Shown: positions 10,934-46,492 of the stretch, in pieces
How positions within the stretch are numbered: position 1 is the first letter of the stretch
How the letters are laid out: each line of letters starts with the position of its first letter
From: Chlamydiales bacterium
GTDB lineage: Bacteria > Chlamydiota > Chlamydiia > Chlamydiales > JAAZZY01
DNA length: 64,000 nucleotides
Assembly (NCBI GenBank): GCA_965206695.1
Contig: CBDBKM010000005.1
Location: forward strand, 73,244-137,243
Direction: 5' to 3'
Notes under the pieces: model-generated
Databases searched by the model: none
What the model saw: the letters and a program-made list of their open reading frames with translations, nothing else
What the model was told of the DNA's origin: nothing
Program-made: the position numbers and the translations under genes

Positions 10934-11539
10934 AGACTTCTTTCGAAATGCATCATATGAATTCCAAATTATAAATTCCCGCAATAAGATTGAACCGCAA
11001 AGCAAACCTTTTTCGTCTATTTCGATAACGACCGGAAATGATTTTAAAGCGTTTGATCACTCCTGTCACATTGTCATTCAAAACACGTTCCCTTGATAAA
11101 TGTCTATTATTTTTCTTATCTTCTTTAGTTAGAGGCTTCTTCTTACTTTTCTTTTTTGGCATATTGGTATTAGCATGAAGCTTTTTTAATCCTTGATATC
11201 CCGTATCCGTTAATACGCTTATTCCCGGATGAATTTTTATTTTTGATTCCTTAAACAGTCTACAGTCATGTCTCCTACCATTAAAAAATGCAGTACAAAT
11301 AATCTGTCGTGTTTTTTTATCTACTATAACCTGAGTCTTTAAGGTATGCTTTTTCTTTTTCCCCGAGTAGAATTTTTTTTGGGCCTTTCAACGGCTGTTT
11401 CCGTGGCATCTATTAAAATAAGCTCATATACCGAATCGTTTTTTAAAAGTGCTTTACGACCGGGTAAAGCAAAATCAGAGTGCTTAATTAAGTGTACCTT
11501 CAACCCACTTTATACTTTTATAAGCACTGCTTTCACTTA
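10932..11539 (-). mobile_element. IS5-family element, copy 1 (truncated; continues at 12477-12514)
   Basis: Terminal IR (T)AGACTTCTTTCGAAA. ORF 10953..11162 (MPKKKSKKKPLTKEDKK...NRRKRFALRFNLIAGIYNLE) is homologous to 12532..12795. It is split by the IS630 at 11540-12474. Confidence 0.7.
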
Positions 11540-12474
11540 TAGTCATTTAATTTTACATTGATAAGATTGCTTGATCAATGGCGAATTTAAAATTCGTAAC
11601 TTTTCGTAATATCTCTCTAACTTTATTTTTCATATTAGCCCAATATTTTTCTATAGGATTTAAGTCCGGAGAATATGGAGGAAGAAACATAAGCTTACAA
11701 CCGGCAGATTCTACTATTTTCCTGCTTTCCGCTGACTTGTGAAAACCGGCATTGTCAAGAATAAGAACACTACCGGGTGTAAGCTGAGGAGTCAAAACTT
11801 CCTTAAGCCAAATATTGAATAACCCGGTATTACAAGTACCTTCAAAACACATTGGAGATAAAAACTGCCCTTTAGATAGGGCTGAAATAATATTTTGCCT
11901 TATAAAGCGGTTTCCTGAAACCGCTCCAAAAACTTTTTTGCCGCGTAAGCTTCTTCCGGACTCACGAAATAAAAATTGATGAATCCCGGTTTCATCGAGA
12001 TAAATTCTCTTGTCAAAGGGAATATTTTTTAAATTTTTCATAAAAGCTTCCCGTTTCTTTTCATCTCTTTCCTTATAGCGAGTAGTTTTTTTTTTCGTGT
12101 AATTTTTAATCTTTTAAGGGCATAAAAAATCGTTTGCGGAGTGACTGAAAAATAATCAGCAATTTCCGATAAAAAATAATCCGGATGTTTTTCTACATAT
12201 TTAGATAACAACTCATCATCTAATTTCTTATAAGCATATTTTCTGCGGATTGGCTTTAAATGTCCTTTTTGCTTTTTTTGCAAGATCCATCGATATATTG
12301 TTGCGATACCTACTTGAAAAATATGGCCGGCTGTTTTTTTATCATGATGTTTTTCTATATGTTGTAATACTTTCTCTCGAAGATCTACTGAATAGGCTCT
12401 AGGCATTGTTTTGTCCTTACTGTTTGTATAAAAAAAGAAGGATAACATATTATCAAATAAAAATTAAAATACTA
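11540..12474 (-). mobile_element. IS630-family IS (third lineage), copy 1
   Basis: Imperfect IRs TAGTCATTTAATTTTAC / TAGTATTTTAATTTTTA. It is flanked by TA on both sides and inserted into the IS5-like copy. It is near-identical to 13750-14685. Confidence 0.85.
11553..12406 (-). CDS. IS630-family transposase, two frames separated at an A10 tract
   Basis: HTH part (MPRAYSVDLREKVLQHIE...) ends 12038. DDE part 11553..12041 carries YLDETG, LILDNAGFHKS and PPYSPDLNPIEKYW. The coding-strand A10 run (12076-12085) needs a -1 shift or slippage to fuse the frames. Confidence 0.8.
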
Positions 12475-13420: not shown

Positions 13421-13749
13421 ATAATCAAATGGCCCGGGTTACGCTATTACAAAAAATTGGTCCTTTATTGATTGATATGATAGCACAACATGCCAATCAG
13501 GATTTTACCCATGTCGATACTCATCGAGATATCCTTGATACATTTGCCAATCTCTCAGACCTTAAAAAACAAGTTCAAGATGAGTTTTTAAAAGAGAAGG
13601 TGTTATCCAAAGAATTATCTATCCTCATAGAAAAGAAAAAAGAAAGCCTTTTAAAAAAAGATATTCTAATCAAACAATTAAAAGAGCCGGAAAATGCCGG
13701 GTTAAAAAAGAATGAAGAAGAAACCCTATTTTCTGAATTTACCAAATTA
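13421..13749 (+). pseudogene. recN: recN, internal fragment
   Basis: RVTLLQKIGPLLIDMIAQHANQDFTHVDTHRDILDTFA matches the RecN region ...LVDIHGQHEHQxLL...LLD. It continues into coiled coil (LKKNEEETLFSEFTKL). It is bounded by IS5-like and IS630 insertions, and the Walker A part and C-terminal half are absent. Confidence 0.65.
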
Positions 13750-14685
13750 TAGTCATTTAATTTTACATTGATAAGATTGCTTGATCAATGGCGAATTTAA
13801 AATTCGTAACTTTTCGTAATATCTCTCTAACTTTATTTTTCATATTAGCCCAATATTTTTCTATAGGATTTAAGTCCGGAGAATATGGAGGAAGAAACAT
13901 AAGCTTACAACCGGCAGAGTCTACTGTTTTCCTGCTTTCCGCTGACTTGTAAAAACCGGCATTGTCAAGAATAAGAACACTACCGGGTGTAAGCTGAGGA
14001 GTCAAAACTTCCTTAAGCCAAATATTGAATAACCCGGTATTACAAGTACCTTCAAAACACATTGGAGATAAAAACTGCCCTTTAGATAGGGCTGAAATAA
14101 TATTTTGCCTTATAAAGCGGTTTCCTGAAACCGCTCCAAAAACTTTTTTGCCGCGTAAGCTTCTTCCGGACTCACGAAATAAAAATTGATAAATCCCGGT
14201 TTCATCGAGATAAATTCTCTTGTCAAAGGGAATATTTTTTAAATCTTTCATAAAAGCTTCCCGTTTCTTTTCATCTCTTTCCTTATAGCGAGTAGTTTTT
14301 TTTTTTCGTGTAATTTTTAATCTTTTAAGGGCATAAAAAATCGTTTGCGGAGTGACTGAAAAATAATCAGCAATTTCCGATAAAAAATAATCCGGATGTT
14401 TTTCTACATATTTAGATAACAACTCATCATCTAATTTCTTATAAGCATATTTTCTGCGGATTGGCTTTAAATGTCCTTTTTGCTTTTTTTGCAAGATCCA
14501 TCGATATATTGTTGCGATACCTACTTGAAAAATATGGCCGGCTGTTTTTTTATCATGATGTTTTTCTATATGTTGTCATACTTTCTCTCGAAGATCTACT
14601 GAATAGGCTCTAGGCATTGTTTTGTCCTTACTGTTTGTATAAAAAAAGAAGGATAACATATTATCAAATAAAAATTAAAATACTA
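13750..14685 (-). mobile_element. IS630-family IS (third lineage), copy 2
   Basis: Same ends as copy 1, with TA flanks at 13748-13749 and 14686-14687. It is one nt longer than copy 1 (A11 versus A10). Confidence 0.85.
13763..14617 (-). pseudogene. IS630-family transposase, frames fused by an A11 tract but with a premature TGA
   Basis: ORF 13763..14494 reads straight through ...ITRKKKTTRYKERDEKKREAFMKDLKNIP.... Upstream, codon 14576-14578 is TGA where copy 1 has TTA (Leu). Confidence 0.8.
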
Positions 14686-21074: not shown

Positions 21075-21461
21075 TTATCTTAAAAATCTCTGCCGGTTTG
21101 TTACAATCGCTTTCATCGCTACCTGTGTTGTCTCAACAATTGCTTTATCCATATCATGTGTGATTTCTATCATACCCCACCCTGAGATAACTCCCACAGC
21201 TAATCCGGATAGAAAAAAAATACTGTTTTCTGCATAAATACCTATACTAACAATGCTTACAGCTGTAAAGACACCAAATAATGAAACCGAAAGAGTAAAT
21301 TTGGCTATACCTTCTATAACATCTTGAGCAGATTGAATCCTCCTATCAGTGAATTCAATAATTGGATTAGTTGTTAATGCTTTCGATTCAATAGATTTTC
21401 CATCCAATATATCCCTCTTAAAAACATACGGTGACTCTGAAACGATGGTCATATTACTCAT
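21075..21461 (-). CDS. small membrane protein with a bilobed hydrophobic domain (Inc-like candidate)
   Basis: 128 aa. FTLSVSLFGVFTAVSIVSIGIY - AENS - IFFLSGLAVGVISGWGMIEI forms two adjacent TM segments with a short loop. No homolog was recognised. Confidence 0.55.
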   Translation of the reverse strand: MSNMTIVSESPYVFKRDILDGKSIESKALTTNPIIEFTDRRIQSAQDVIEGIAKFTLSVSLFGVFTAVSIVSIGIYAENSIFFLSGLAVGVISGWGMIEITHDMDKAIVETTQVAMKAIVTNRQRFLR

Positions 21462-21504: not shown

Positions 21505-21665
21505 TTGACAACTCATAACCCTCGGGGGAAGGGATTGCTCATTCCACGATCACTGCCCTACGGTAGATCTAAAAGATAGGGATAGTATACAAAATATGAG
21601 GATTAACAAAAATACGAAATAAAACTGTAATCGAAACGCTCTCATCCCAATACTAAAGCGTCTAT
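21505..21665 (-). repeat. non-autonomous IS605-derived mini-element (degenerate RE module 2 plus partial LE)
   Basis: TTGACAACTCATAACCCTCGGGGGAAGGGATTGCTCATTCCACGATCACTGC aligns to the reverse RE module. The TGCCCTACGGTA...ACGCTCTCATCCCAATACTAAAGC part is homologous to 7700-7810. Confidence 0.5.
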
Positions 21666-21687
21666 TTGTTTTTTTGATTTTGGATAT

Positions 21688-21912
21688 ACTCATTCACATT
21701 CGAAGCCGGACAGGATTGAGTTCCGGCACTTGAAATGTATCATTCATTCGTGTCTTAAGCTTGTCTCTTAAAATCGGGATTTTGTCTTTAAAAAACCCCT
21801 TACCTCTCATTTAAAATCAGTAAATGTCATAAGTAACCGTTTCCCTTATCACCTTCCAAAGACTTTCTATGGTATTTAAATTTGGAGAATTATGGGGTTA
21901 AAGAGACAAGCT
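21688..21912. repeat. segmental repeat copy 1: unclassified unit of about 140 bp plus the 3' terminus of a degenerate IS630-type element
   Basis: ACTCATTCACATTCGAAGCCGGACAGGA...CTTAAGCTTGTCTCTTAAAATCGGGATTTT...ATAAGTAACCG...CCAAAGACTTTCTATGG recurs at 26096-26330 with a few indels. Confidence 0.6.
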
Positions 21913-21913
21913 C

Positions 21914-23021
21914 TATACCCCTTATGAATCAAAGTGCCGATTCTAAGACTTGAAAATGATCATTGATTCGTTTCCTCATTGATTGAGCAATAGAGGGCCA
22001 AGTATTTTCAAAAAATCCGGTAATCGATCTCCGAAATTCTTTAGCAGAATTAAAAAACCGATTATTGCGACAATATTCATTCATCACTTTCCATAATCGT
22101 TCAATGGGATTGAGGTTAGGACTGTAAGAAGGTAAATAATAGAGAATAATACCTTGTTTTTCTGCTTCTTGTTTGGTCTGAATACTTGTATTATAAGGGC
22201 CTTGATCTAAAATAAGATGGATATTTGGAGCTGAGGGGTATTTTGACCGTAGCAAAGCAAAATGCTTTGCCATGGTACCGCTATTTAATGTTTCATAAGC
22301 ATCTATTGTTACCTTCATACTGTTTAAATTGATAGACCCCATAAGATTCATTCGAGTACGAGAAGCTGTTGTTGCAATCAATTTATCTGTTCCCGGTCGA
22401 ATCCAACCATAAGAAATTTTAGTTGCCATAGTTGGATGTACACCATCAGCAAATTCAACAGGCTCATTTTTAGGCAAAGATGCCATAAGCTTGGCGTAAA
22501 ATTGCATCCAAGCTTTTTGTTGATCAGAATTTGCCTTAGCCGGTGTACCTTTAGGCTTTTTATAGGAAAAACCATGTGAGTGTAGCCAAGAAGTCATCCC
22601 TGAAATCGTATAAACAATGCCATATTTCGCGAGAACATAAGAACAGATATCTTCTACTTTGACATAGGTATGAGTTGTTAAATGTTTAATGAATTCTTCT
22701 GACTGTGGCGCAAGAAGTTTACTGACTGAACCACCGCTTTCTATATGCAATTGCTGTTTATTTTGATATTCTTTAATGTGACGAGACACTGTTTCATCGT
22801 CTAAAAGCACAGCTTCAGCAATACGAGTATTACTCCAACCTTTATTCGACAATAGAACAGCCTTGATACGATCTCGTATACGACCATTCTTTTCTCGTTT
22901 ATGTTGCTGTCTGAGATGCTTTTCTTCTGATAGTGTTAAAAATGAATTCATACAAAACAATTTACACTATACGAATACAAAATATCCGGAGGTTTATTCG
23001 TGATGAGTATATACTTAGTAC
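21914..23021 (-). mobile_element. IS630-family IS (fourth lineage), apparently intact
   Basis: Imperfect terminal IRs beginning TATAC, with TA at both junctions. It carries the full-length ORF 21929..22960. Confidence 0.8.
21929..22960 (-). CDS. IS630-family transposase, full length
   Basis: 343 aa in a single frame. N-terminal HTH (WSNTRIAEAVLLDDETVSRHIKEY). DDE residues in FADGVH, LILDQGPYN and YSPNLNPIERLW. Confidence 0.9.
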   Translation of the reverse strand: MFCMNSFLTLSEEKHLRQQHKREKNGRIRDRIKAVLLSNKGWSNTRIAEAVLLDDETVSRHIKEYQNKQQLHIESGGSVSKLLAPQSEEFIKHLTTHTYVKVEDICSYVLAKYGIVYTISGMTSWLHSHGFSYKKPKGTPAKANSDQQKAWMQFYAKLMASLPKNEPVEFADGVHPTMATKISYGWIRPGTDKLIATTASRTRMNLMGSINLNSMKVTIDAYETLNSGTMAKHFALLRSKYPSAPNIHLILDQGPYNTSIQTKQEAEKQGIILYYLPSYSPNLNPIERLWKVMNEYCRNNRFFNSAKEFRRSITGFFENTWPSIAQSMRKRINDHFQVLESAL

Positions 23022-23117
23022 ACCAAATAATTAAGATGATTAAGATTAAAAATAGCTGTCTTTGCAGTTTGCCGTCTTTCCATGTGGACAATGTATATAG
23101 TAATACAACATATGACT

Positions 23118-23971
23118 ATGAAAAAAGCTTATAAATTTAGATGCTGCCCAATAAAAAAATAAAAAGAGCTTTTAGCTAAAAGCTTTGGTTGTTGTAGGGT
23201 AGTGTATAATCAAGCTTTAAATTTTAAGATTAAGAAATATCAAGAAGAAAAAGAGAGCACATTAAATATTGCAAAACCTAAATAACCATTAAAAATACGT
23301 TGGTCGAGGAGATTGATTGGAATTCCTTCAGGAGTAGCGGTTACTAAAGATACATGCGAAAAATATTTTATCAGTATCCCGGTGGAAGAGCAACCTATTC
23401 AACTTAAGCAATATAATTATGCTATTGGAATCGATATGGGCTCGGAAAGTTTTGTAACAACATCCAACGGTAAAAAGTTAATTTCTCCTAAGCCATTTAA
23501 GTATTTTAAAAAGAAATTAAAAAAAAAATCAAAAATGTTTAAGTAAATTTAAATCTACCGGCAAACACAGAAACAAAAGCAGAATCAAAGTCGCCAAGAT
23601 TCATTTTAAAAATATAAGACATGACTTTTATCATAAACTTTCTACACAATTGATTTATGAAAACCAAGCCATCATAATTGAAGGTTTAAATATCAGAAGT
23701 ATGTTAAAAAATAAAAGATATGCGGAAGGTCTATCAGATGCAGAATAGCGTCAATTGTTAATATTTTTAAAGTATACATGTGATTGGTACGGAAAAAACA
23801 TAGTCGAACTACCTCAGAATTTTCCCGGTATACAACGATGTTCCATATGCCGACACAATGTAGAAAAATTAGAGTGCAATATAAGATCTTGAAAATCCCA
23901 AATGCAATACTGAGCATGACAGAGATTGTAACGCAGCCTATAATATCTACCGAGGGCAGTCGGTAATTTAA
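23118..23971 (+). pseudogene. tnpB: TnpB (IS605 OrfB) RNA-guided nuclease homolog, multiply frameshifted and deleted
   Basis: The N-terminus KAYKFR...LLAKSFGCCRVVYNQAL, the mid part GIDMGSESFVTTSNGKKLISPKPFKYFKKKLKK and the Zn-finger region are spread over several frames. It is shorter than a full tnpB. Confidence 0.75.
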
Positions 23972-24057
23972 GCCTTTGGGGATCGTGTTAGACTAGCACT
24001 TGTTAGCAATGATCGTTGAATGAGGAATTCCCTCCCTTTAGGGTTGGGAGCTGTCAA
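23955..24057 (+). repeat. IS605 RE / putative omegaRNA module 3
   Basis: GGCAGTCGGTAATTTAAGCC...CCCTCCCTTTAGGGTTGGGAGCTGTCAA. It overlaps the tnpB stop and ends 26 nt before the TTG start of the ltaS-like gene. Confidence 0.7.
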
Positions 24058-24082
24058 TTGTTCTTCTAAAGGGGGGATACTT

Positions 24083-25960
24083 TTGAATAGATTCATCAAA
24101 CTCGCGTGGCATTTTTTTTTACTTATCATTATTTATGAAGGATTACGTCTTTTATTTTTAATCAACAATATCGATTTTTTTCAAGATTTTGCTACTAAAG
24201 ACCTTCTCAAAACATTTATCTCAGGCCTTCGTTTTGATCTAGCCGGTATTGGATTTATCAATTTCTTATATGTAATCCTTTATATGTTTCCCATAAAAGA
24301 TGAGTGGATGAATAAATCCTATCTCGCATTTTTAAAATGGTTATTCGTCATTAGTAATGGTATTTTTATTACAGCGAACATCTCCGATGCCGAATATTTT
24401 AAATTTTCCGGAACAAGGTTATCATTAAGTTCATTTAAAATTACGCAAGATTTAGCCGATCAATCTCTTCAATTGATCGGCTATTACTGGTATTTATCTC
24501 TTTTAATTATTTTTAATATCGGGTTTTTAGCCTACTTTTACGACAAACCTTTCTTAAAAAAATGGAACTTTAAATTTAATTTCTTCTCTCAAAATTTTCT
24601 TTTTCTTCTTATGATTTTTTTTATGGTCGTATTCGCAAGAGGTGGCTTACAACTTAAACCTGTCATACCGGCCAATGCCTTCGCTAACAATAAGCCTCGC
24701 TTAGCTCAGCTTGCCTTAAATAGCTCTTTTACTATTTTAAAATCTTCTACACAAGAACAACTCTCATCCCCTCATTATTTTAAAAATTGGAATGAAATAT
24801 TAAATATTCTCAATAAAGAATCATCTGTAAATAAGGGTATTGATCCCTTACCGGAAAACACTAATGTCGTTATTTTTATTTTAGAAAGCTTTGCATTGGA
24901 ATATATGGGTTTGCCTAATAGCTACGAAGGATACACCCCTTTTCTTGATGAAATTGCTAACAACGGACATTTTTTTTATAACCATTTTGCAAATGGACGT
25001 CGCTCTATTGATGCTCTGCCTTCGATTTTAGGTGGTTTACCTGCCTTGATGGATACCGCTTTTATCGTCTCTAGATACCAAACATGTTCTTTAAACGGAT
25101 TACCGGCAACATTAGATGAACGAGGATATTCAACAGCTTTTTTCCATGGAGGGAAAGAAGGGACAATGTATTTTGATGTTTTAACCAAAATGCTTGGCTT
25201 TCATCAATACTTCGGCGCTTCCGATTATCCCAATGAAAAGGACCATAGCGGTAGTTGGGGGATCCATGATCATTCTTTTTTTTCCTTTTCAATAGAACGG
25301 ATTAATGAAATGAAAAAACCCTGCTTTTGCACTATTTTTAGTTTGAGCTCTCACCATCCATATAATATTCCACCCGAACACGAAAATCATTTTCCTAAAG
25401 GAACTTTAGAAATTCATGAAAGCATTGGTTATGCTGATTATGCTTTAAGACAATTTTTTGAGAAAGCCAAAACACAAGATTGGTTTGATAATACCTTGTT
25501 CATATTCACCGCTGATCACACTTCTAAATCTGAATATCCCCAATACCAAACCAATATAGGACGTTTTCGGATTCCATTAATTTTTTATCACCCGCAGAAA
25601 TCATTACCTCTGGTATCAGAAAAGACTGTCGCTCAACATGTGGATATTACACCTACTATTTTAGATTTATTGGGTATCCTACAGACTAAAAAAGCGTTAT
25701 TTGGCAACTCGTTAATCAAAAAAGATAACAACCATTATGCCCTAATCTACAATTCTAATACCTATTGGCTTGTTAAAGATGATTTTCTCACCCAGATGAA
25801 TCCTGACGGTAGTATCGAATATTTCAACCGGGAACAAGACCCCCTTCAAACCAAGCAACTATCCATACATGCTCGGCAAAAAAATCCGTTAGACAACTTG
25901 TTAAAAGCCAACATCCAATATTATAAGGATGGCCTTAAAGAAAATAAGATATCTTGGTAA
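24083..25960 (+). CDS. LtaS-like sulfatase-family membrane enzyme (phosphoglycerol/phosphoethanolamine-transferase-like)
   Basis: N-terminal polytopic membrane region plus an alkaline-phosphatase/sulfatase domain (VVIFILESF, GRRSIDALPS, SSHHPY, FTADHTS). The start is set at TTG 24083, after AAAGGGGGG, because the longer ORF (24020) begins inside the RE repeat. Confidence 0.8.
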   Translation: MNRFIKLAWHFFLLIIIYEGLRLLFLINNIDFFQDFATKDLLKTFISGLRFDLAGIGFINFLYVILYMFPIKDEWMNKSYLAFLKWLFVISNGIFITANISDAEYFKFSGTRLSLSSFKITQDLADQSLQLIGYYWYLSLLIIFNIGFLAYFYDKPFLKKWNFKFNFFSQNFLFLLMIFFMVVFARGGLQLKPVIPANAFANNKPRLAQLALNSSFTILKSSTQEQLSSPHYFKNWNEILNILNKESSVNKGIDPLPENTNVVIFILESFALEYMGLPNSYEGYTPFLDEIANNGHFFYNHFANGRRSIDALPSILGGLPALMDTAFIVSRYQTCSLNGLPATLDERGYSTAFFHGGKEGTMYFDVLTKMLGFHQYFGASDYPNEKDHSGSWGIHDHSFFSFSIERINEMKKPCFCTIFSLSSHHPYNIPPEHENHFPKGTLEIHESIGYADYALRQFFEKAKTQDWFDNTLFIFTADHTSKSEYPQYQTNIGRFRIPLIFYHPQKSLPLVSEKTVAQHVDITPTILDLLGILQTKKALFGNSLIKKDNNHYALIYNSNTYWLVKDDFLTQMNPDGSIEYFNREQDPLQTKQLSIHARQKNPLDNLLKANIQYYKDGLKENKISW

Positions 25961-25981
25961 AGGAAGGCTATCATCACAAGG

Positions 25982-26083
25982 TTGACAGCTCCCAACCCTA
26001 CAGGGAAGGAATTCCTCATTCAATGACCATTGTAACAAGTCTTAGCCTAATATGATCTCCAAAAGCTTAAATTACCGACTGCC
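25982..26083 (-). repeat. IS605 RE / putative omegaRNA module 4 (only a tnpB scrap attached)
   Basis: TTGACAGCTCCCAACCCTACAGGGAAGGAATTCCTCATTCAATGACC...TTAAATTACCGACTGCC. It is convergent with module 3 across the ltaS-like gene. Confidence 0.7.
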
Positions 26084-26095
26084 CTTCAGATATAC

Positions 26096-26330
26096 ACTCA
26101 TCCACATTGGAAGCCGGACAGGAGCACTTGAAATGTATCATTCATTCGTGTCTTAAGCTTGTCTCTTAAAATCGGGATTTTTTCTTTAAAAAAGCCCCTT
26201 ACCTCTCATTTAAAATCAGTGAATGTATTATAAAATTTATTATAAGTAACCGCTTCCCTCATCATTTTCCAAAGCCTTATCTATTGCATTTAAATTTGGA
26301 GAATAATGTAGGGGTAAATAGACATGCTCT
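26096..26330. repeat. segmental repeat copy 2 (see 21688-21912)
   Basis: Alignable by eye to 21688-21912. It runs into the IS630-type remnant at 26241 onward. Confidence 0.6.
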
Positions 26331-26660
26331 ATACGTGAAGTTTTTAAATATTCTGTGAATCAGTTTGTTGTTATTGGCTCTTCCGTTATCTAAAATGACA
26401 TCTATTTTTGAAGCCTGTGAATGTTTTTCTAATCCTTTTAAGAAGTCAATAACCCCCTCTTCCTCCAATCATAGAATATTCTTTTGACCTGATTGTCATA
26501 CCCTCAAGTCGCAAAGCTCCAATAATTAGGCCTCCCGGTTTGCTTCTTTCCGGTCTTAATCGTTTTCTTAACCCCTTTTTGGATCCACCCACATACAGTT
26601 TAGAGGATGTACTGCATCAAAAAAATAGATCTCTTCAGAATTTTGAAGACCGGCTTTTAA
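26241..26660 (-). pseudogene. IS630-family transposase remnant (second lineage)
   Basis: ORF 26277..26468 (IDVILDNGRANNN...) plus frameshifted upstream pieces. The 3' end PNLNAIDKALE-like sequence matches 2640-2700. Confidence 0.55.
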
Positions 26661-26754
26661 TGCTTCCTATTCTTTAATAAATAAGTTTTTTGAGAAAAAG
26701 CTTAACATATTCATCAAATAATACGTATGAATTTATTTTATGGGATTGGTATTA

Positions 26755-29256
26755 CTAAAACCCTAAAGCATCTAAAACATCTTTCTCAACATATCGTTTT
26801 TCTCCTTTATTAGGATAACGATGCAAGAACAGGGCCGGATTAAAATTTAATTCGATAATGGAGTGATTTTTTGAGGTTTTCTTACTTGTAGGGTTTTTGA
26901 TGATGATATCAACACCACAAAAAGTGGCACGGACAATACGGGTAGCTTCAATCGCTAATTGACAATAGTCGTCATGAAGAAGATCAGTCATATCAACAGG
27001 ATCGCCTCCGGTAGAAACATTACTGTTTTTCCTTAAAAGAGCCTTTTCATTTTTTTTAGGGATGCTTTTAAAAGTAAAACCCTGTTCTTTTAATATAGAA
27101 CTCTCTTCATCTCCCATTTGAATCCGATACTTTGGAATTTTGAATTCATTGGGATCGAAATTTTTCTTATGAATTAATTGTCCTATAGTATGAATACCAT
27201 CCCCAACCACATGAGGAGGCTCTCTAAGGCAAACCGCTACGACTTTATAGTCGATTACCAAAACACGATATTCCTTTCCAATGCAAAAGTTCTCTACCAA
27301 AACATCGTCTGATAATTTAAATGCTTTCTCTAAAGCTAGAGTGTATTCTTTTTCAGAATTAGGATTTACAAAAGAAATGCCTAATCCATAATTCGTAGAG
27401 TTTGGTTTGACGACAATTTTTTTCTTAGAAAAGTATGAATAATCTTCAAAAGCCTTCTTTTGATCATAATAAATCCTTCCACATGGTACTTGCAGTCCTT
27501 TTTCTCTTAGAAGTTGTTTAGTCACTGATTTATTTTCCATTATCAGATAACTTATCAGGCTATCTTTTGATGTTTTAGTCCCTTGCTTGATTAGCTCCGT
27601 TTTAGATCCTCTTTTCAAACGGATAAAATTATCACCTCTATCTAAAACGGTAACATCTATGCCTCTATTTTGAACTTCGCGAATAATCATTTGAGTGGAA
27701 ATTTCCATATCTTCAAAACCCGATAAAAACATGTCATCATGATACTCCAGCTCTTGTTGTTTTCTATTGGAGTCTACCGCCCATTTTTCCATCTCCTTTT
27801 CAAAACTTGGTGGTATCGAATACTGTTTACTTGCTCTTTTGTGCTTTTTGGCTAACTTTAAACCGAATTCTTTAAAGCTAATTTTCTCCTTTTGAAGTTG
27901 TTGCATGATGCGATAAGACGGTGTTAGGCTAACATCATTAAGCTTCTCTTTTTGCTTTTTTAAAACACTTATGTACCTGTTATCAGTATGATTAAGGTCT
28001 AGAAGTTTAGCTGTTTTTTCAATTCTATTCATAATCTCCATAGCCCAAGTTCTGAAATTTATTGATTTACCATTTTTCTTTAATTTCAGTTTTGGATTTC
28101 TCCCTTCTAAAGTCACACGATTTTGATTGTAGCAGATTTCTTTTCGCTCAGTTTCTGTTATTGGAGAGCTTGTTTGAAAAAGACAGTCAATGATAAGTAC
28201 ATGTAAAAAATGTAACTGTTCTTCTGTTACCCCTACAGAATCAAACGGATCAAGATCAACAGCTCTGATTTCAATAAAACTAACCCCTTCATTTTTTAAA
28301 GCCTCAACCGAGCTAAGTTTAGAACCATAAGGTGCTTTCGGTCGAATACGTGAATAATGCTCCGCCTCAATTTGTAAAACGTTATGATTTAACTGCAGAT
28401 GTTTATTTTTTTTAAATAATCCAATCGTTTTAAAAGTAGAAGAAGAAGTAGATAGTGCCTTTTTCATATCCTGCAAATAAAAAGATAAGTCATTGAAGGA
28501 GATAGCATATTGGGCTTGAACACGACTATAATACCCTAATGCGCTCATTCTAATTGAAGTGGTATATTCTCCATAAAGTGTTCGATGCCGCATCAATGAA
28601 AGCTGTTTACAAGGTTTATCAAAATAAGAACGGTCAACAGCAGGAGAGGCGCCAAAAAAGTAGGCGTTGATCCATCCCCATCTTAAAAAATTACGCATTA
28701 TTTTGAAGTAACATTTATTAATAAACTCCTGCAAGGAAGTATCAGGATCAAAATTGTTATGAAGGAGCCGGAAAAAATCTTCAGAAAATGAAAAATTATA
28801 ATGAATTCCGGACATCGTCTGCATCTTTCTTCCATATCGAAAGCCGAGACCTCGACGATATATTTTTTTCTCTTCTCCTAACTTAGATGACCCATAGTCA
28901 GCTAAAGGGATGTCTTTTGCTTTAGGTAGTAAGCAAGGCGAACTAAAAGGCCACATCCATTCCTTTTTCATATGATCGAAGGTATACTTTTGAAGATTTT
29001 TAAGATGCTGAATGGCCTTCTTTTCATTATTGAAAGTAGAGGTGATAAATTCTAATTGAGCCTCTGAAAAATCTGTACTGATATAAGGGTGAGTTAGTGA
29101 AGAACCCATGAAGTTAGGGTGAGGTTGCTGAGATAACTCAGCTATATTATTTACCCTTAAACACTCTTTCTCTAATCCGTGTTTCGAATGAAGAAATAGT
29201 TCATGTTGCCTATTTTCTTCAAACAGCTTGAAGATTTGGGGATAATTCCAGCTCAT
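26755..29256 (-). CDS. gshF: bifunctional glutamate-cysteine ligase / glutathione synthetase
   Basis: 833 aa. The N-terminal ~480 aa are a GshA-type gamma-glutamylcysteine ligase. The C-terminal part is an ATP-grasp domain (KKIVVKPNSTNYGLGISFV, EYRVLVIDYKVVAV, IIELNFNPAL). Confidence 0.85.
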   Translation of the reverse strand: MSWNYPQIFKLFEENRQHELFLHSKHGLEKECLRVNNIAELSQQPHPNFMGSSLTHPYISTDFSEAQLEFITSTFNNEKKAIQHLKNLQKYTFDHMKKEWMWPFSSPCLLPKAKDIPLADYGSSKLGEEKKIYRRGLGFRYGRKMQTMSGIHYNFSFSEDFFRLLHNNFDPDTSLQEFINKCYFKIMRNFLRWGWINAYFFGASPAVDRSYFDKPCKQLSLMRHRTLYGEYTTSIRMSALGYYSRVQAQYAISFNDLSFYLQDMKKALSTSSSTFKTIGLFKKNKHLQLNHNVLQIEAEHYSRIRPKAPYGSKLSSVEALKNEGVSFIEIRAVDLDPFDSVGVTEEQLHFLHVLIIDCLFQTSSPITETERKEICYNQNRVTLEGRNPKLKLKKNGKSINFRTWAMEIMNRIEKTAKLLDLNHTDNRYISVLKKQKEKLNDVSLTPSYRIMQQLQKEKISFKEFGLKLAKKHKRASKQYSIPPSFEKEMEKWAVDSNRKQQELEYHDDMFLSGFEDMEISTQMIIREVQNRGIDVTVLDRGDNFIRLKRGSKTELIKQGTKTSKDSLISYLIMENKSVTKQLLREKGLQVPCGRIYYDQKKAFEDYSYFSKKKIVVKPNSTNYGLGISFVNPNSEKEYTLALEKAFKLSDDVLVENFCIGKEYRVLVIDYKVVAVCLREPPHVVGDGIHTIGQLIHKKNFDPNEFKIPKYRIQMGDEESSILKEQGFTFKSIPKKNEKALLRKNSNVSTGGDPVDMTDLLHDDYCQLAIEATRIVRATFCGVDIIIKNPTSKKTSKNHSIIELNFNPALFLHRYPNKGEKRYVEKDVLDALGF

Positions 29257-31805: not shown

Positions 31806-33883
31806 ATGAAAGTCGTTTTAGCCGAAAAACCCAGCGTCGCAAGAGATATCGCATCCTTTTTAAAAGCTAATACTAAAGGCAATGGCTATTTTGAAGGTAA
31901 TGGTTATCAGGTTACATGGGCATTCGGACATTTAGTCACCTTAAAAGACCCGAATGAGTACGATCCCGGTTTAAAAAAATGGACCTTATCTACTCTCCCC
32001 TTTATTCCTAAAGATTTTGAATTGAAACTCGTCAATAATCAAGGGGTAAAAACCCGGTTTCAAGTAATTAAAAAGCTGTTTAAGGCAAGCGGATGAAATC
32101 ATCTGCGCTACAGATGCCGGAAGAGAGGGAGAGCTTATCTTTCGCTATATTCTGAAGATGAGTAATTGTGAAAAAAAGCCCTTTTGCCGTCTTTGGTTAA
32201 CTTCTTTAACCAATGAGGCAATTAAGTCGGGTTTTAAACAATTACAACCCGGAGAGGTCTATAACAACCTATATATGGCTGCTAAATGCAGAAGTGAATC
32301 TGATTGGGTAGTGGGAATAAATGGCACGCGAAATTTTACTGTGCGATATGGAAAAGGAACTCTTTGGAGCATCGGAAGGGTACAAACACCTGTTTTAGCT
32401 ATGATCGTTGCAAGAGATGATGAAATTCGAAACTTTGTCCTTCAAAATTTTTGGGAGCTTTTTTCCACTTTTAAAAACGTAGCTTTTAAATATACCGGTA
32501 AACGTTTTGATAAAAAAGAAAAAGCAGAAGTTGCAAAAGCCAAAGTTGCATCTCATCCTTTCAGCATAACAAAAATTCAAAGCAAACAGGAAAAGCAACA
32601 ACCCTCCTTCTTTTATATGACCTAACCGATTTACAGCGAGACATGAACCGTCGATATGCTATGAGTGCATCGGATACGTTAAAAATTGCTCAAACCCTAT
32701 ATGAAAGTAAAATTCTGACTTATCCCAGAACCGATTCACGTTTTTTAAGCAATGATATGAAAAAGGACATTATTCATACACTTCATAAATTAAAAGCCAT
32801 AAAATCAAATGAAATCGACGTGCTAAATTTGAATGCACTTCCTTTTACATCTCGCATTATCAATGATAAAAAAGTATCCGATCACCCATGCTATTATCCC
32901 TACCGGCAAAATCCCTTCAGGCCTTCCACTATCTCATCAACAGGTTTTTGATGCCGTTGTGTTACGCCTTATCTCCGGTTTTTATCCTAATTGCACTAAG
33001 CAGGTTAAAACAGTTGAGGGAGAGAGTAATGAATTAAAATTTCAAGCTAAAGGCATTCAAGTCATAGAGCCCGGTTGGACACGATTATATCCTAAAACTA
33101 AAAAAGATGATGAACAAGAATTGCCTGAATTTAAAGAAGGTGAAACGGGTCCTCATAATCCATATATCAAAGAAGGTAAAACCAAGCCCCCCTAAATATT
33201 ATTCTGAAAATTCACTACTTGGCTCCATGGAAACCGCAGGAAAGATGGTGGAAGATGAGACGTTAAGAGAAGCATTAAAACAAAGAGGCCTTGGAACACC
33301 GTCAACTAGAGCTGCTATTATTGAGACTTTACTCAAAAGAGGATACATCGAAAGAAAGAAAAAAACTCTTGTAGCTACTGCTAATGGTCGATATTTAATT
33401 ACGTTAGTACAAAACCCCAATTTAAAATCTCCGGAGCTTACCGGTATTTGGGAGTCCAAATTAAAAGAAATCGAACATGGTGGTTTAGATTCTAACCAAT
33501 TTATGAATGAAATTTACGGTTATACCAAGGAACTTATTGAAACGAGTAATCTAACTGAGATTGACCCAAATCAACTGGGTCCTTGCCCTCTTTGTAATAG
33601 CTCCGTTATTCAAGGAAAGAAGGGCTTCGGATGTTCTCAATGGAAAAAAGGCTGCACATTCGTTTTATGGAGAGAATACAAGGGAGTCACTCTTTCTACG
33701 AATCATATCCAAAAGCTATTGCAAAAAAGGGTCATTTTATCGCCCGTCAACGTACCTGAATTAGGAAATGTCATCTTAACACTTTCCGATTCAGGTATCG
33801 TTAAAGAACAACCCGTTCCAAATGAAGCGCCTGCCTTTAAGAAGCGGTATCCGAAAAAGGCCTATTCTAAGCGGCGACAATAA
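31806..33883 (+). pseudogene. topB: DNA topoisomerase III, four frameshifts
   Basis: Recognisable parts: Toprim MKVVLAEKPSVARDIA, ICATDAGREGELIFRYI, TYPRTDSRFLS, SDH-HAIIPTGK and the Zn ribbon CPLCNS...GCSQWKKGC. Frame changes lie at 32084-85 (GG), 32602-04 (CCC), 32885-87 (CCC) and 33187-92 (C6). Confidence 0.85.
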
Positions 33884-37794: not shown

Positions 37795-37945
37795 AAATTC
37801 GTATCGTCTTTTAATGCCTCTTGAGATTATCATATCTTCGATCTTTTTATTCTTTAATAAGCTTCATGAATACTTATATCAATATTATAATATTTACTGA
37901 AATATTACTTTGAAATAAAGAGAAAACCGGATAAGAAAAACACTT

Positions 37946-38050
37946 TTGACAGCTCCCAACCCTAAAGGGAAGGGATTCCTAATTCATTGACCACTGCTAA
38001 CAAACAAGCTAGTCTAACATGATCTCCAAAGGCTTAAATTACCGACTGCC
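37946..38050 (-). repeat. IS605 RE / putative omegaRNA module 5
   Basis: Reverse complement reads GGCAGTCGGTAATTTAAGCCTTTGGAGATCATGTTAGAC...CCCTTCCCTTTAGGGTTGGGAGCTGTCAA. It lies upstream of, and co-oriented with, proB. Confidence 0.7.
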
Positions 38051-39130
38051 CCTGCGGTATCGATATTAATAGATGCATTAAGATCTCTATCGTGTGTTAC
38101 TTTGCAGTTTGGACACTGCCAACTTCTCACACTTAAATCTAAAATTTCTATTTGGTACCGGCAGGCAGAGCATAGTTTTGAACCGGCAAAAAATTGATCT
38201 AATTCCACTATATTTCTTCCGTACCATTCACACTTATACTTTAAAAATGTTAAAAACCGGCTCCATCCTGCATCCGATATATGCTTGGAAAGTTTTTTAT
38301 TTTTTAACATCTTATTAATATTTAACCCTTCTATCGTGATCGTTTGGTTTTCACGAGCCAACTTTGTAGAAAGTTTATGATGAAAGTCCTGCCTTATATT
38401 TTTTATCTTCGAATGTATCGAAGCCACCGATCTTCTTTTTTTGAGTCTGTTTTTACCTTTGACTTTAGCTTTGCTAAGAGAACGTTGTTTTCTTTTTAGT
38501 CTTTTCTTATGAAATCTAAAAGGTTTAGGTGCCGTAATCTTTTTCCCTGTAGAAAGAGTTGCGAATGTCGTTAATCCTAAATCTATACCGACAGAATTAT
38601 TTCTCTTCTCAAAAGGGATCACTTCTTCTTCTACTATATAGGCTCACAAAATACCTGTCACAAGAGCCTTTTGTGATTGTTATACCTGTTGGTGTACCTA
38701 AAAAACACCTTGACCAATGTATTTTTAATCTGTCTTTAGATTTTGCAATCTTAAGATTAACCCCATCCCAACTAAATGCTGACTTAGTTAATCGTATTGC
38801 CTGCGTACTGTGTTTGTTTTTAAAGCGAGGGAAATTTGACCTTTTTTTAAAAAGTTTAAAAAAGCTCTATCAAGATCTCTAAGACTTTGTTGCAGACAAA
38901 CAGAAGAAACTTCGTTTAACCAAAGAAACTCTTTGTTTTGCTTAAGACTTGTCAAGAATGCCGATGTTTTAGAATAACTTACATTCTCTTTGTATTGCCT
39001 GATATTTCTTGATCTTAAAATTTAAAGCTTGATTATATACAACTCCGGAACATCCAAAGCTTTTTGTAAGCAACTCCTTTTGTTTTTTCGTTGGATAGAA
39101 TCTAAATTTATATGCTTTTTTGATCATCAT
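38014..39130 (-). pseudogene. tnpB: TnpB homolog, N-terminal half frameshifted
   Basis: N-terminus MMIKKAYKFRFYPTKKQKELLTKSFGC at 39130. The C-terminal ORF 38014..38622 carries GIDLGLTTFATLS, the Zn finger CSACRY...CPNCKVTHDRDLNASINI, and an extra G that shifts the last codons. Confidence 0.85.
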
Positions 39131-39149
39131 GTATTGCATTATATGTCCG

Positions 39150-39563
39150 GTACATATATATTGTCTATCCGGAAAGACGGAAAACCTCTAAAACAGCAGT
39201 TTTTAACCTTAGTTACCATGTTATTTGGTGTCCTAAATATAGGAGAAAGGTTCTTGAAGGTGATATTGTTGTTCGTTTAAAGGAATTATTAGAATTAAAA
39301 GCTCTACAACTAAATATAGAAATTAACGAACTGAATATTATGCCTGATCACGTACATATTTTTTAAATACCAAGCCTATATATTCGCCACAATTTTTCAT
39401 AGGACAACTTAAGGGATATACAAGCCGAATATTAAGGCAAGAATTTTCAAGCTTAAGATCCGGGTTACCCACACTGTGGACACGGTCTTATTATGTTGAT
39501 AGTGTTGGAAAATTAAATGAATATACAATCAGAAAGTATATACGGAATCAAAAAAACAAATAG
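39150..39563 (+). pseudogene. tnpA: IS200-type Y1 transposase TnpA, disrupted
   Basis: ...NELNIMPDHVHIF* (HUH motif region), then QLKGYTSRILRQEFSSL...LWTRSYYVDSVGKLNEYTIRKYIRNQKNK* in other frames. Confidence 0.8.
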
Positions 39564-39616
39564 ACACTTTCATCCCACCCTTAAAAAGGTGGGGTTTCTC
39601 GTTTAATTGTCATAAA

Positions 39617-40300
39617 TCAAATGAAATAACCGCTATCCCTGAATTATTAGATCTTTTAGACATAAAAGGCTTGATAATCACTATTGATGCTATGGGTTGT
39701 CAAAAGAATATAGCTAGAAACATTATCGATAAACAAGGAGATTATGTTTTAGCCCTCAAGGGCAATCAAGGACTTTTTGCTGAAGAAATTACAGAATTTC
39801 TAGCAGTAGCACCTTTCGATCCACAAACAACCTATTCTTTTGACAGCGACACGGAGTGTGATAAAGGTCATGGAAGAATAGAAGAAAGGACTTGTTATGC
39901 AACATCTGATATATCCCGGCTTCATGATAAAAAAAATGGAGTGGTTTAAAAACTATTTGTATCTTAGAATCGAAACGAATCATTCAAAATAAAACAAGCA
40001 TAGAGAGAAGATGTTTTATATCCGGTCTTCCTGCAAATGCCAAACAAATAACAGACGCTATTCGAAATCATTGAGGAATAGAAAATCAGCTCCATTGGAC
40101 TTTAGATGTCGTTTTTAATGAAGATCAATCACGAATAAGGAGTAAAAAATCCGCAGACAATATGGCTACAATTAGACACTGTGCAATAAACTTACTCCAA
40201 TAAGCTAAATCTTTTTTTAAAGGGGCTTAGAAAAAAAGCAGGTTGGGGGAGCCACGCTTTAGATTTAATCTTAATACAGAACAATTTTTAATGGGACAGC
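39617..40300 (+). pseudogene. ISAs1-family transposase, 5'-truncated and frameshifted
   Basis: SNEITAIPELLDLLDIKGLIITIDAMGCQKNIARNIIDKQGDYVLALKGNQ...HGRIEERTC, then ENQLHWTLDVVFNEDQSRIRSKK in another frame. It begins exactly at the IS605 LE boundary. Confidence 0.75.
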
Positions 40301-40384
40301 CTTGCCAATAGAGGTGTTTCTCTTTTTTTAAATCTAATAACCGGATATAATAACTTAATCTTAAATCAATTAATTTCTATTATT

Positions 40385-41116
40385 ATGAAAAAAATCCGTT
40401 TATCCAAAATTATGTCTGAGAGAGCCCTATGTTCTCGTAGAGAGGCTGATAATTATATTTATAAAGGATGGGTATCCGTTGATGGAGTAAAAGTTGATCA
40501 GTTGGGGTATCAATGTAGTAGTGATGTTGATATCCAATTAGACACAAAAGCCGATACCGCTCAGAATAAAAAAATGACTATCCTTTTAAATAAACCTCTT
40601 GGCTATATTTCCGGTCCAAGGCAAGATACGTACAAAGCCGCTAAAGAATTACTGATCTTAAATAACAAAGACCCTAAATGCCCTGTCCCCGTAAATCAGT
40701 TTAACGAAAACAACAATCTGGTTATCGCCGGTAGGCTCGATATTAACTCAAGTGGTTTAATGGCCTTCACAGAAGATGGTCGTGTTGCCAAACAACTTAT
40801 CGAAGATCATTCTCAAGTAGAAAAAGAATACCGCGTCATGTTCGATGGCTATCTTTCTCAAGAAAAATTATCTCTTTTGCAATGTGGACTAAGGCTTGAT
40901 GGTGTCCCCTTGAGACGAGCTCAAGTTACTCTCACAAAAAATAAAATGCTTAAAATGATCCTAAGGCAAGGACGAAAACGACAAATTCGACGTATGTTTG
41001 AGTTGATTGATCTTGATATCATCAGTTTAAAAAGAGTTCGTATTGGCAATATCAATCTGCGCGCTCTCCCTAAAGGGAAATGGCGCTACCTTCAAGAGAG
41101 TGAATCCTTTATTTAA
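40385..41116 (+). CDS. RsuA/RluB/RluF-family pseudouridine synthase
   Basis: N-terminal S4 domain (IRLSKIMSERALCSRREAD), catalytic GRLDINSSGLM, and GRKRQIRRMFE. Confidence 0.88.
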   Translation: MKKIRLSKIMSERALCSRREADNYIYKGWVSVDGVKVDQLGYQCSSDVDIQLDTKADTAQNKKMTILLNKPLGYISGPRQDTYKAAKELLILNNKDPKCPVPVNQFNENNNLVIAGRLDINSSGLMAFTEDGRVAKQLIEDHSQVEKEYRVMFDGYLSQEKLSLLQCGLRLDGVPLRRAQVTLTKNKMLKMILRQGRKRQIRRMFELIDLDIISLKRVRIGNINLRALPKGKWRYLQESESFI

Positions 41117-41187
41117 ACTCTTGCAAAGAAAGTCATAATTTCTCATCGTCTAACCATTCTTTAACTAAAAAGACACAGGGTATCTAT

Positions 41188-42013
41188 ATGAACAAACTTT
41201 TTTTATTTTTTGGATGCATTTTTATGCTTTTGCAAACACTGGGAGCAGATATCCACACAATAGAAAAATATCAATGATATTAATGATCAATTGCAAACGG
41301 CCGATTCTGAAACTCTTGTCATTTTTGATCTTGAACAAGTACTATTCCTTCCCGATGATCTCGTACTACGTCCTTGTTCAGAGGCTCTGTTAAAAGACCA
41401 AATCTCAATGATTCAAATGGGCTCTTTAGGAGATCATGACTTTGATCTTATCTTAAGCAAGATCTATCTCCAAAAAACCAATAATTTAGTTGATGCTAAT
41501 ATCATTCAAATTCTTGCAGAATTACAAGCAAAGCATATTCCGGCCATAGGCCTTACTAAAACAAATATCGGCTCTAAAGGGTATATGCAAAGTCAGGAAG
41601 ATGCTCGCTTAGTCGAACTTGAAGAATTAGGCATCTCTTTTTCAGAAACATTTCCGGATAAAAATGGCATGGTTTTAATGATCGACGAAGAAAAAAATCA
41701 ACCCATTTTTAAAGACGGTGTTCTTTTCTGTGATCGCTATAGCAAAGAAGAGGTATTATCTACTTTTATAAGCCGGCTTAACTTCAAGCCAAAAAACGTT
41801 CTCTTTATTGACGGTAAGCTAAAAAATGTAAAATCTGTAGAAGAAAAAATGGAGAAGCAAGGGATCGCTTTTCAAGGATACCACTACATTGCAGTCAAAA
41901 AAGACCTCGAAATTGATGATGAACTAGCTAAGTATCAGCTAAAGCATTTGCTCGAAACCGGTAAATGGCTAAATGATGAAGAGGCCGGGTCTCATCTATC
42001 TGCTGATGAATAA
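41188..42013 (+). pseudogene. secreted HAD-like protein (DUF2608-like), +1 frameshift after the signal peptide (or a sequencing error)
   Basis: Signal peptide MNKLFLFFGCIFMLLQTLGA at 41188. It joins ORF 41291..42013 (LVIFDLEQVLF...) if one A is removed from the A5 run 41264-41268. Confidence 0.6.
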
Positions 42014-42248
42014 TCCTCTTATTCTAAAGTAATAAATTTAATTTTGTTTTTCATTATGATGATGTACCATGCACGAATGACTTAATTCACTTGATTTAAG
42101 AAAAAAAACCCTCAAATATCTCGATAAGATTGGAGCCGGTTTTTAATTTTTTTAAAATATAAAAGCGAGTGCTACGGGAGAAATCCAGTAGAATTAGATC
42201 AATATTTTCCTAGTACACAAAAGTGTTCTACATACGGTTATAAACAAG

Positions 42249-42354
42249 GGCAGTCGGTAATTTAAGCCTTTGGATATCGTATTAGACCAGCTCTTTTGTT
42301 AGCTGTTGTCTGTGAATCAGGAACCCCTTCCCTTATAGGTTTGGGAGCTGTCAA
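42249..42354 (+). repeat. IS605 RE / putative omegaRNA module 6 (preceded only by a tnpB C-terminal scrap)
   Basis: GGCAGTCGGTAATTTAAGCCTTTGGATATCGTATTAGACC...CCCTTCCCTTATAGGTTTGGGAGCTGTCAA. Positions 42165-42248 encode a VELDQYFPSTQKCS-like TnpB scrap. Confidence 0.65.
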
Positions 42355-42555
42355 ATAAGCCCTAATTGCCGGTCCTGCCAAAAAGTTATGGCGTATCTTA
42401 ACTCTGAGAGTAAGCAAATACCTCACAAAGATGTAAAAAACCCTGAAAATAGACAGAAACTTATTGGCATAGGCGGAAAAGGGCAAGTATCTTGTCTTAT
42501 TATCAACGGTGTTCCTCTGCATGAATCTCTCGAGATTATTGCATTGCAACGAAGT

Positions 42556-43026: not shown

Positions 43027-43052
43027 GTGAGCACCTCTTATTAAGCCACTAA

Positions 43053-43155
43053 TTGACAGCTCCCAATCCTAAAGGGAAGGGATTCCTCATTCAACGACCC
43101 TTGCTAACAAGGGTTAGTCTAATACGATATCCAAAGGCTTAAATTACCGACTGCC
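43053..43155 (-). repeat. IS605 RE / putative omegaRNA module 7
   Basis: Reverse complement GGCAGTCGGTAATTTAAGCC...CCCTTCCCTTTAGGATTGGGAGCTGTCAA. It overlaps the tnpB stop (..NIDTEGQSVI*). Confidence 0.7.
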
Positions 43156-44097: not shown

Positions 44098-44099
44098 AC

Positions 44100-46482: not shown

Positions 46483-46492
46483 TTAGGTGGTC

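Follow-up and report, generated by a model that had tools for sequence, protein, structure and literature searches.

A sulfatase-family gene between two facing IS605-type right ends in a chlamydial genome: a probable by-product of transposon insertion and decay

The stretch of 64,000 nucleotides (nt) analysed here (the window; positions are counted from its first nucleotide) belongs to contig CBDBKM010000005.1 of a Chlamydiales bacterium (assembly GCA_965206695.1, positions 73,244 to 137,243). It contains a sulfatase-family gene bracketed by two right ends of a transposon of the insertion sequence (IS) type IS605, which face each other from opposite strands. We regard this bracket, with a probability of about 0.75, as a by-product of transposon history, that is to say, as two independent insertions around a resident gene that were followed by decay, and not as a functional unit. 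Five findings carry this reading: the anatomy of the bracket, the family assignment of the elements, their decay, the chance expectation for the arrangement, and the finding that the two flanking copies show no special similarity to each other.

Anatomy of the bracket

The two right ends are parts of ~105-nt modules, designated module 3 (the right end of element C) and module 4 (element H), which are 2 of the copies of one IS605-type element in the window (elements A to H; Table 1). The modules are inverted copies of each other with an identity of 87-89% over 105 nt (blastn E-value 2e-32). Each comprises the last 7 codons of tnpB followed by an IS605-type right end and spans GGGCAGTCGGTAATTTAAGCC to GGGAGCTGTCAA, and both close with the same terminal GCTGTCAA, at 24057 and 25982, respectively. 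The right end of module 3 includes an imperfect palindrome (CCCTCCC-TTTA-GGGTTGGG) and finishes with TCAA. Only 1 credible open reading frame (ORF) is enclosed by the two modules; 21 nt (25961-25981) lie between its stop codon (25958-25960) and module 4.

An earlier note, made from the letters of this DNA, had described most of this geometry correctly: two right ends that face each other, exactly one gene between them, a ribosome-binding site and a TTG start codon 14-26 nt past the first right end (the Shine-Dalgarno sequence AAAGGGGGG occupies 24069-24077, and the TTG lies 26 nt past the right end), and a stop codon 22 nt before the second one (21 nt intervene). The note had also placed tnpB remnants on both outer sides of the bracket, which holds for the left side only. 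There, a tnpB pseudogene with recognizable domains and in-frame stops is continued by module 3. On the right outer side no tnpB was found; from position 26092, a decayed IS630-type (DDE_3) element adjoins module 4.

The annotated start codon of the bracketed gene (ATG 24020; 646 amino acids (aa), database product P0001) falls inside the right end of module 3. Because this ATG lies within the module, and the N-termini of 6 homologs align from TTG 24083 onward and fit the Shine-Dalgarno sequence ahead of this codon, we assign the gene to 24083-25960. The start-codon annotation is thereby corrected from a position in a transposon end to TTG 24083. The gene product is full length compared with its homologs, which are annotated as "LTA synthase family" or "MdoB-like phosphoglycerol transferase", and matches the Pfam Sulfatase family (PF00884) with an E-value of 8e-38. 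Its best solved relative in the PDB is the uncharacterised VP1736, and PDB chains of LtaS match with E-values of 1e-14 to 1e-20 over the catalytic domain only. With the NCBIfam LtaS equivalog model LptchSynLtaSGpos the score was 100 bits against a cut-off of 970. Judged by these matches, the product is a membrane-anchored transferase of the alkaline-phosphatase superfamily, and not a demonstrated LtaS. The gene is intact and keeps the invariant residues, while the tnpB copies, apbE and a topoisomerase gene in the same window are broken; thus, it probably remains in use.

The 25 nt of native DNA between module 3 and the start codon is too short for a promoter, and the upstream 1 kb consists throughout of same-strand IS605 relic, preceded by an opposite-strand IS630 element. 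Therefore, the mRNA must start in, or cross, the relic and module 3, which points to transcription from or through the IS605 relic. The best sigma-70-like match in 23000-26800 (ATGACA-17-TATAAT, 11/12 match, plus strand, 23916-23944) ends 8-9 nt before module 3. The same motif is found in the equivalent place in element B (43197-43169, minus strand) and element D (49061-49089), where it is the best or joint-best match in 37900-49300. The transcript would most likely start at the 23916-23944 motif, with a leader of ~130 nt in which module 3 is contained in full. In the IS-laden amoeba symbiont Amoebophilus asiaticus, IS elements are co-transcribed with downstream genes (PMC3196728). As a separate observation, the position of the motif 8-9 nt before the module in three copies could mark a dedicated promoter of the guide-RNA region.

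An IS605-type family in decay

Modules occur 8 times in the window, on the plus strand at 3892, 23953, 42247 and 49101, and on the minus strand at 21505 (degraded), 25982, 37946 and 43051. These copies are 78-91% identical to one another, that is to say, they diverge by 9-22%, more so in the coding part. The C-terminus of TnpB (..EGQSVI) and the stop codon after it are encoded by their first 21 nt, as is also the case in related database fragments. Between IS605 subfamilies, the right-end module (78-91%) is far better conserved than the 140 nt of tnpB 3' coding sequence upstream of it (49-86%), which is expected if the right end together with the guide-RNA scaffold is the most constrained part of an active element.

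The element has distinct left and right ends. The right end finishes with GTCAA in 6 of the 8 copies. The left end of the longer copies consists of TTTAT directly followed by GACAATTAAACGAG, then a palindrome, and then a relic of the Y1 transposase gene on the opposite strand. In all 5 copies in which the left end is kept, TTTAT abuts GACAAT and the sequence further upstream is unrelated. The pentanucleotide is not repeated after the right ends of the window copies, so there is no target duplication; the TTTAT test covers the copies with a preserved left end, the left ends of the bracket copies being lost or rearranged. Palindromes can be read in the sequence of both ends (CCCTTCCC-TTTA-GGGTTGGG at the right end; CCCnTTGC-TTTA-GCAnTGGG at the left end), and the DNA fold energies of these end palindromes are no better than those of shuffles (z -0.7 to +0.05).

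Domain analysis revealed OrfB_IS605 and Cas12f1-like_TNB domains in elements A and B, and the same domains plus HTH_OrfB_IS605 in the stitched relic of element C. A Y1_Tnp relic in element B, stitched over one frameshift, covers positions 43-121 of 121 of the Pfam model (E-value 4e-20). The Y1 transposase is present in the window as a pseudogene only and is absent from both bracket copies; its HVH and SYY motifs are visible in elements A, B and D. Every tnpB copy in the window is broken by stops or frameshifts. By its divergent tnpA and tnpB genes, apparently asymmetric ends, TTTAT target and TCAA right end, the element is assigned to the IS605 type of the IS200/IS605 family. The right end of IS608 also finishes with TCAA.

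This family looks long extinct in the genome. A search of 5.8 billion proteins, which included those of this genome itself (P0001, P0121), with the TnpB fragment of element A as the query returned no full-length TnpB with more than 55% identity; the foreign TnpBs among the matches were ~50-55% identical, and the closest matches were fragments with at most 62% identity. A metagenome scan with the same fragment yielded one distant partial locus only, the right end of which is unrelated. A 19-mer of the module was absent from the searched genome and metagenome contig collections, and the element has no name in the sources searched.

Both bracket copies were hit by IS630-type elements (Table 1). 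In element C, the IS630-type insert lies between a left-end fragment and the promoter region of tnpB, and ~295 nt are missing compared with element B. Positions 21684-21918 of this insert are 82% identical to the relic at 26092-26334 and adjoin an intact ORF of a different IS630 type; the element therefore appears to be a hybrid. At module 4, the decayed IS630-type element replaces everything upstream, including tnpB and the promoter-like motif. Comparison with element B places its insertion site at a TA ~10 nt upstream of the GGGCAG of the module, and the rest of that IS605 copy is gone. The head-to-head junction of two left-end fragments in front of element C suggests recombination or a nested insertion at the palindrome.

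Several further observations concern the same elements. IS630-type insertions into IS605 copies at TA sites number at least 3. IS630-type copies with identities of 97-100% occur as direct repeats 2.2 kb apart (11537-12385 and 13747-14596) and as inverted repeats 56 kb apart (2199-2638 and 58173-58701); thus, IS630 moved recently, unlike the IS605 family, and most of the window could be inverted by way of the inverted pair. An M3 peptidase gene (46493-48592, minus strand) has the left end of element D (TTTAT at 48618-48622) 25-30 nt upstream of its start; the tnpA relic of this element reads towards the gene, and its right end supplies the stop codon of ORF 49203-49676 (minus strand). Among the host genes, apbE is split into two ORFs (5544-6531) and a topoisomerase gene is in fragments (32158-33883), which is consistent with genome decay. 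The window of this apparently chlamydial genome also contains a type I polyketide synthase module (KS, ACP, TE; 54472-57855, minus strand) and a nonribosomal-peptide-synthetase-like A-PCP protein (59488-61878, plus strand).

Table 1. Features of the bracket, of the IS605-type and IS630-type elements, and of the adjoining host gene.
Feature	Position	Strand	Description
Sulfatase-fold/"LTA synthase family" gene	24083-25960	+	625 aa, membrane-anchored, TTG start, intact, family-invariant residues kept
Module 3 (element C right end)	23953-24057	+	tnpB C-terminus ..EGQSVI, stop TAA 23971-23973 within GGTAATTTAAGCC, then non-coding right end
Module 4 (element H)	25982-26087	-	Solo copy of tnpB 3' end and right end; terminal TCAA at 25982
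Remnant of native 5' untranslated region (UTR)	24058-24082	+	25 nt between module 3 right end and start codon
Element C tnpB pseudogene	23015-23952	+	HTH_OrfB_IS605, OrfB_IS605 and TNB domains; in-frame stops and frameshifts
Element A	37946-39623	-	Longest IS605-type copy: left end with TTTAT, tnpA relic on opposite strand, broken tnpB, right end 112 nt upstream of proB
Element B	43051-44578	-	Left end with TTTAT, Y1_Tnp relic, broken tnpB, promoter-like motif, right end 24 nt upstream of mgtC ATG
Element D	48618-49206	+	Internally deleted: left end (TTTAT), tnpA relic, tnpB 3' end, right end
Element E	3881-3995	+	Solo right-end module, 94 nt upstream of ORF 4090-4632
Element F	42098-42354	+	Short tnpB 3' relic and right end; convergent with element B across mgtC
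Element G	21505-21600	-	Degraded right end of a small IS605-type derivative; TGTCAA at 21505, 43 nt upstream of ATG of ORF 21075-21461 (-)
Head-to-head junction of two IS605 left-end fragments	21636-21677	G on -, C on +	Inside left-end hairpin; element C fragment ~21655-21677
IS630-type element	21678-23014	-	Terminal inverted repeats, intact 343-aa DDE_3 transposase ORF 21929-22960; sits inside element C
Decayed IS630-type element	26092-26735	-	DDE_3 remnants with stops, to ~26640-26735; right boundary approximate
gshF (bifunctional glutamate-cysteine ligase/glutathione synthetase)	26755-29256	-	Next host gene, convergent with sulfatase-family gene; stop adjoins IS630 relic

Independent insertions and the alternatives

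The history that we infer from these relics would have run as follows. An IS605-type element with tnpA and tnpB on opposite strands, inserting 3' of TTTAT, would have spread in an environmental chlamydia and then died. Copy C would have inserted 25 nt upstream of the start codon of the sulfatase-family gene, with its right end towards the gene, and copy H, on the opposite strand, 21 nt beyond the stop codon. Both copies would have decayed, IS630-type elements would then have entered both at TA sites, and deletions would have taken most of H and part of C. The gene would have lost its own promoter in the process, with its mRNA now starting in, or passing, the relic of C.

Independent insertions at both flanks were one of three readings offered by the earlier note, and they are the best supported of these: both junctions end exactly at TCAA, the two modules show no special likeness, and the arrangement is one that chance can give. 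Module 3 is 87% identical to module 4; it is closest to element D (91%), and module 4 is closest to element B (89%). A local duplication of one module into the other was rejected on the basis of this identity matrix, in which modules 3 and 4 resemble each other no more than they resemble other copies. In a simulation in which 8 elements were distributed with random place and orientation over the intergenic slots among 33-55 genes, at least one single-gene bracket of convergent right ends arose with a probability of 0.2-0.3; therefore, the bracket at the sulfatase-family gene is not more than chance gives. The earlier note was right that two right ends cannot make a composite transposon: for IS200/IS605 elements, both a left and a right end must lie on one strand, and two right ends from opposite strands cannot be excised together.

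Three points weigh against this reading. First, the window holds a second bracket, in which mgtC (42556-43026, minus strand) lies between the right ends of element F (ending at 42354, plus strand) and element B (ending at 43051, minus strand). The right end of element B lies 24 nt upstream of the mgtC ATG, a layout like that at the sulfatase-family gene. Two brackets in the window have a probability of 0.01-0.03 under a uniform null, which ignores the visible clustering of the modules, and would mean either clustered insertions or something that favours the arrangement. Second, no empty site was shown, both elements having lost or rearranged left ends and the host having no close relative. Third, the promoter-like motif in front of module 3 falls in the codons of the TnpB RuvC-III motif (HDRD..NAAYNI), and its conservation is not independent evidence of a promoter because these codons encode a conserved catalytic motif.

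A bias of right ends towards gene starts was considered as evidence and rejected. Of the 8 right ends, 5 face a same-strand start codon at 112 nt or less, and in three cases at 43 nt or less; besides the bracketed gene, the distances are 24 nt (mgtC), 43 nt (a 128-aa ORF), 94 nt (ORF 4090) and 112 nt (proB). Compared with the real intergenic TTTAT sites, this proximity has a probability of 0.05-0.15, which is not significant. Neither an excess of brackets nor a start-codon bias is established.

The second reading offered by the earlier note, a recombination product, is unlikely for the bracket itself. According to this reading, recombination between IS copies, be it an inversion, a translocation or IS630-mediated mobilisation, moved the gene to where it is now, the flanking IS605 copies were already carried along or were acquired then, and the bracket marks the breakpoints. 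Comparison with relatives bears on the wider region. The host is, by protein comparison, an environmental chlamydia without a close sequenced relative; the best matches of Zwf, encoded 4 kb upstream, are 61-68% identical (63% for a match labelled "Chlamydiae bacterium"), and type III secretion genes are found on the contigs of the Zwf-matching relatives. The gene order glucoamylase-6PGD-zwf-glk is shared by three chlamydial relatives, in which it continues to ychF and sctU/sctV; within 10 kb, tblastn found no homologs of the sulfatase-family gene, the 128-aa ORF, gshF, MFS or sod. Thus, synteny ends exactly at the IS nest. The 128-aa ORF was also considered as a homolog of a small ORF that follows glk in a relative, and no homology was found; gshF has no relative in the searched genome contig collection.

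Further support for a rearrangement comes from the IS nest itself, which holds the left-end-to-left-end junction and the hybrid IS630, and from the same-orientation IS630-type sequences outside both IS605 relics (21678-23014 and 26092-26735). The sulfatase-family protein forms a singleton cluster; its next homologs are 45% identical, the named ones belong to Oligoflexia or Pontibacter, and the gene contexts on two contigs of the nearest homologs do not look chlamydial. However, both junctions are exact termini (TCAA) followed by unique gene-proximal DNA, as made by transposition and not by recombination inside elements. The IS630 copies are only 82% alike, with one of them a relic, and the gene does not differ from the genome in GC content. 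Moreover, loss of synteny is common at 53-68% protein identity and need not involve the sulfatase-family gene. The comparison leaves room for an old rearrangement or for the acquisition of a wider segment and offers nothing against simple insertion at the right-end junctions; a rearrangement of the wider region is compatible with independent insertions at both junctions. The proposal of a recombination product is therefore tenable for the surroundings and not for the junctions between right ends and gene, which look like products of transposition.

The third reading held that the right ends supply regulatory parts to the gene. It can be put in two forms. In the first, which we consider very improbable, module 3 belongs to an exapted expression module: a promoter in the RuvC-III codons and a ~130-nt leader, the C-rich arm of which would sequester the Shine-Dalgarno sequence, would make translation of an envelope-modifying enzyme conditional and, with the same layout at mgtC and the 128-aa ORF, would extend to a genome-wide control of genes by IS605 relics. 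In the second, marginally less credible still, both modules are exapted, module 3 as a promoter and Shine-Dalgarno-masking leader and module 4 as the source of an antisense or omegaRNA-like RNA, possibly for a TnpB-derived protein encoded elsewhere. Several features fit these proposals, including the promoter-like motif 8-9 nt before module 3, the right ends that point into the starts of mgtC, the 128-aa ORF, proB and ORF 4090, and the much better conservation of the module compared with the adjoining tnpB. In addition, the C-rich arm of the right-end palindrome (UCCCUCCCUUUAGG) is predicted to pair with the Shine-Dalgarno region (UCUAAAGGGGGGA) within 24022-24082 at -25.1 kcal/mol, the strongest such duplex among 33 gene 5' UTRs and one reached by 1/2000 shuffles.

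Consensus right ends derived from the other copies pair equally well with the gene 5' UTR (-24 to -25.6 kcal/mol), on which account co-adaptation of module 3 and the Shine-Dalgarno sequence was rejected, and the pairing is probably due to chance. The proximity to start codons is within chance, and the conservation of the module is expected from constraint during the time in which the IS was active. RNAalifold predicted 28 pairs and 0 compensatory changes for the 7 alignable copies, which are few and very similar. Single-sequence folds of the modules have z-scores of -1.4 to +0.9, and Rfam returned no match to the modules at gathering thresholds and only noise at E-values up to 10. Module 4 has no promoter-like motif, because the IS630-type insertion removed it, and no terminator-like site was found when it was considered as a terminator; on these sequence features, we regard module 4 as inert. 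The idea of right ends as suppliers of regulatory parts thus survives, as a matter of anatomy alone, for an upstream promoter and leader, and is unsupported for a 3' hairpin or antisense RNA from module 4, with its motif lost to IS630, no terminator-like site, and a fold no better than shuffles.

The earlier note had further remarked that omegaRNAs transcribed from the modules would carry the gene's own flanks as guides. This is so by construction for every IS605 copy and is nothing special to the bracket. No intact cognate TnpB was found in the window or among the database matches. For the guide-like flanks, no second target exists in the window: no match had fewer than 3 mismatches in 16 nt, and the matches at that level lack a preceding TTTAT.

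Finally, a bracket made by repeat-induced mis-joining is scarcely credible, for although the region is repeat-dense and the sequence comes from a draft contig (207,729 bp), the modules are only ~105 nt long, differ by 9-22% from each other and from the other copies, and lead at both junctions into the unique sequence of one continuous intact ORF.

Relation to known systems and significance

The element resembles IS605, IS608 and ISDra2, "peel and paste" transposons of the IS200/IS605 family that move as single strands and encode the Y1 transposase TnpA and TnpB, in that (i) it has Y1_Tnp and TnpB genes, with tnpA divergent from tnpB as in IS605; (ii) its ends appear to be asymmetric, with putative subterminal imperfect palindromes, and the TTTAT pentanucleotide abuts the left end; and (iii) the 3' end of tnpB overlaps the conserved region of the right end and guide-RNA scaffold. 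By contrast, all copies described here are dead or truncated and are hosted by a chlamydia, and the bracket copies keep the right end only (element H) or the right end and a broken tnpB (element C). Elements D and G, which keep both ends with little or no coding sequence, and elements E and H, which are right ends alone, recall solo ends and the PATEs, the non-autonomous derivatives of the IS200/IS605 family; they differ from these in that they look like decay products of single insertions (9-22% divergence) and not like an amplified, uniform MITE-like family.

A composite transposon also consists of one gene flanked by two inverted IS copies of the same family. In the bracket, however, both inner ends are right ends, one on each strand, the segment has no left end beside it, and neither copy is complete. 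The resemblance to TldRs, which are TnpB-like nuclease-dead repressors with guide RNAs beside their target genes (PMC10705468), is one of layout only: a guide-RNA scaffold lies beside a host gene, the flank of which would be the guide. Unlike in that system, there is no intact TnpB-like protein here; the relics keep D/E/D-type motifs (GIDLG, IEGLN, HDRD) and are frameshifted, not selectively inactivated, and no target with a transposon-associated motif plus guide was found elsewhere in the window. A further parallel is the co-transcription of IS elements and downstream genes in Amoebophilus asiaticus (PMC3196728), with which the present case shares an IS relic that immediately precedes an intact host gene in the same orientation, and many inactive IS copies. 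The IS families in that study are different, and its evidence is from RT-PCR, whereas transcription is inferred here.

Beyond the annotation, the bracket matters little; it is a record of an extinct IS605-type element that had not been described, and of IS630 activity that came later, in the genome of an environmental chlamydia. In at least 3 intact host genes (the sulfatase-family gene, mgtC and the 128-aa ORF), the start codon follows a transposon right end at a distance of 24-43 nt. Gaps of 24-25 nt leave no room for a native promoter, and the gap of 43 nt barely does. These three genes probably depend on transcription out of dead transposons. If this is true, they would be cases of IS relics that serve as promoters and leaders in a decaying symbiont genome, as is already known for other IS families.

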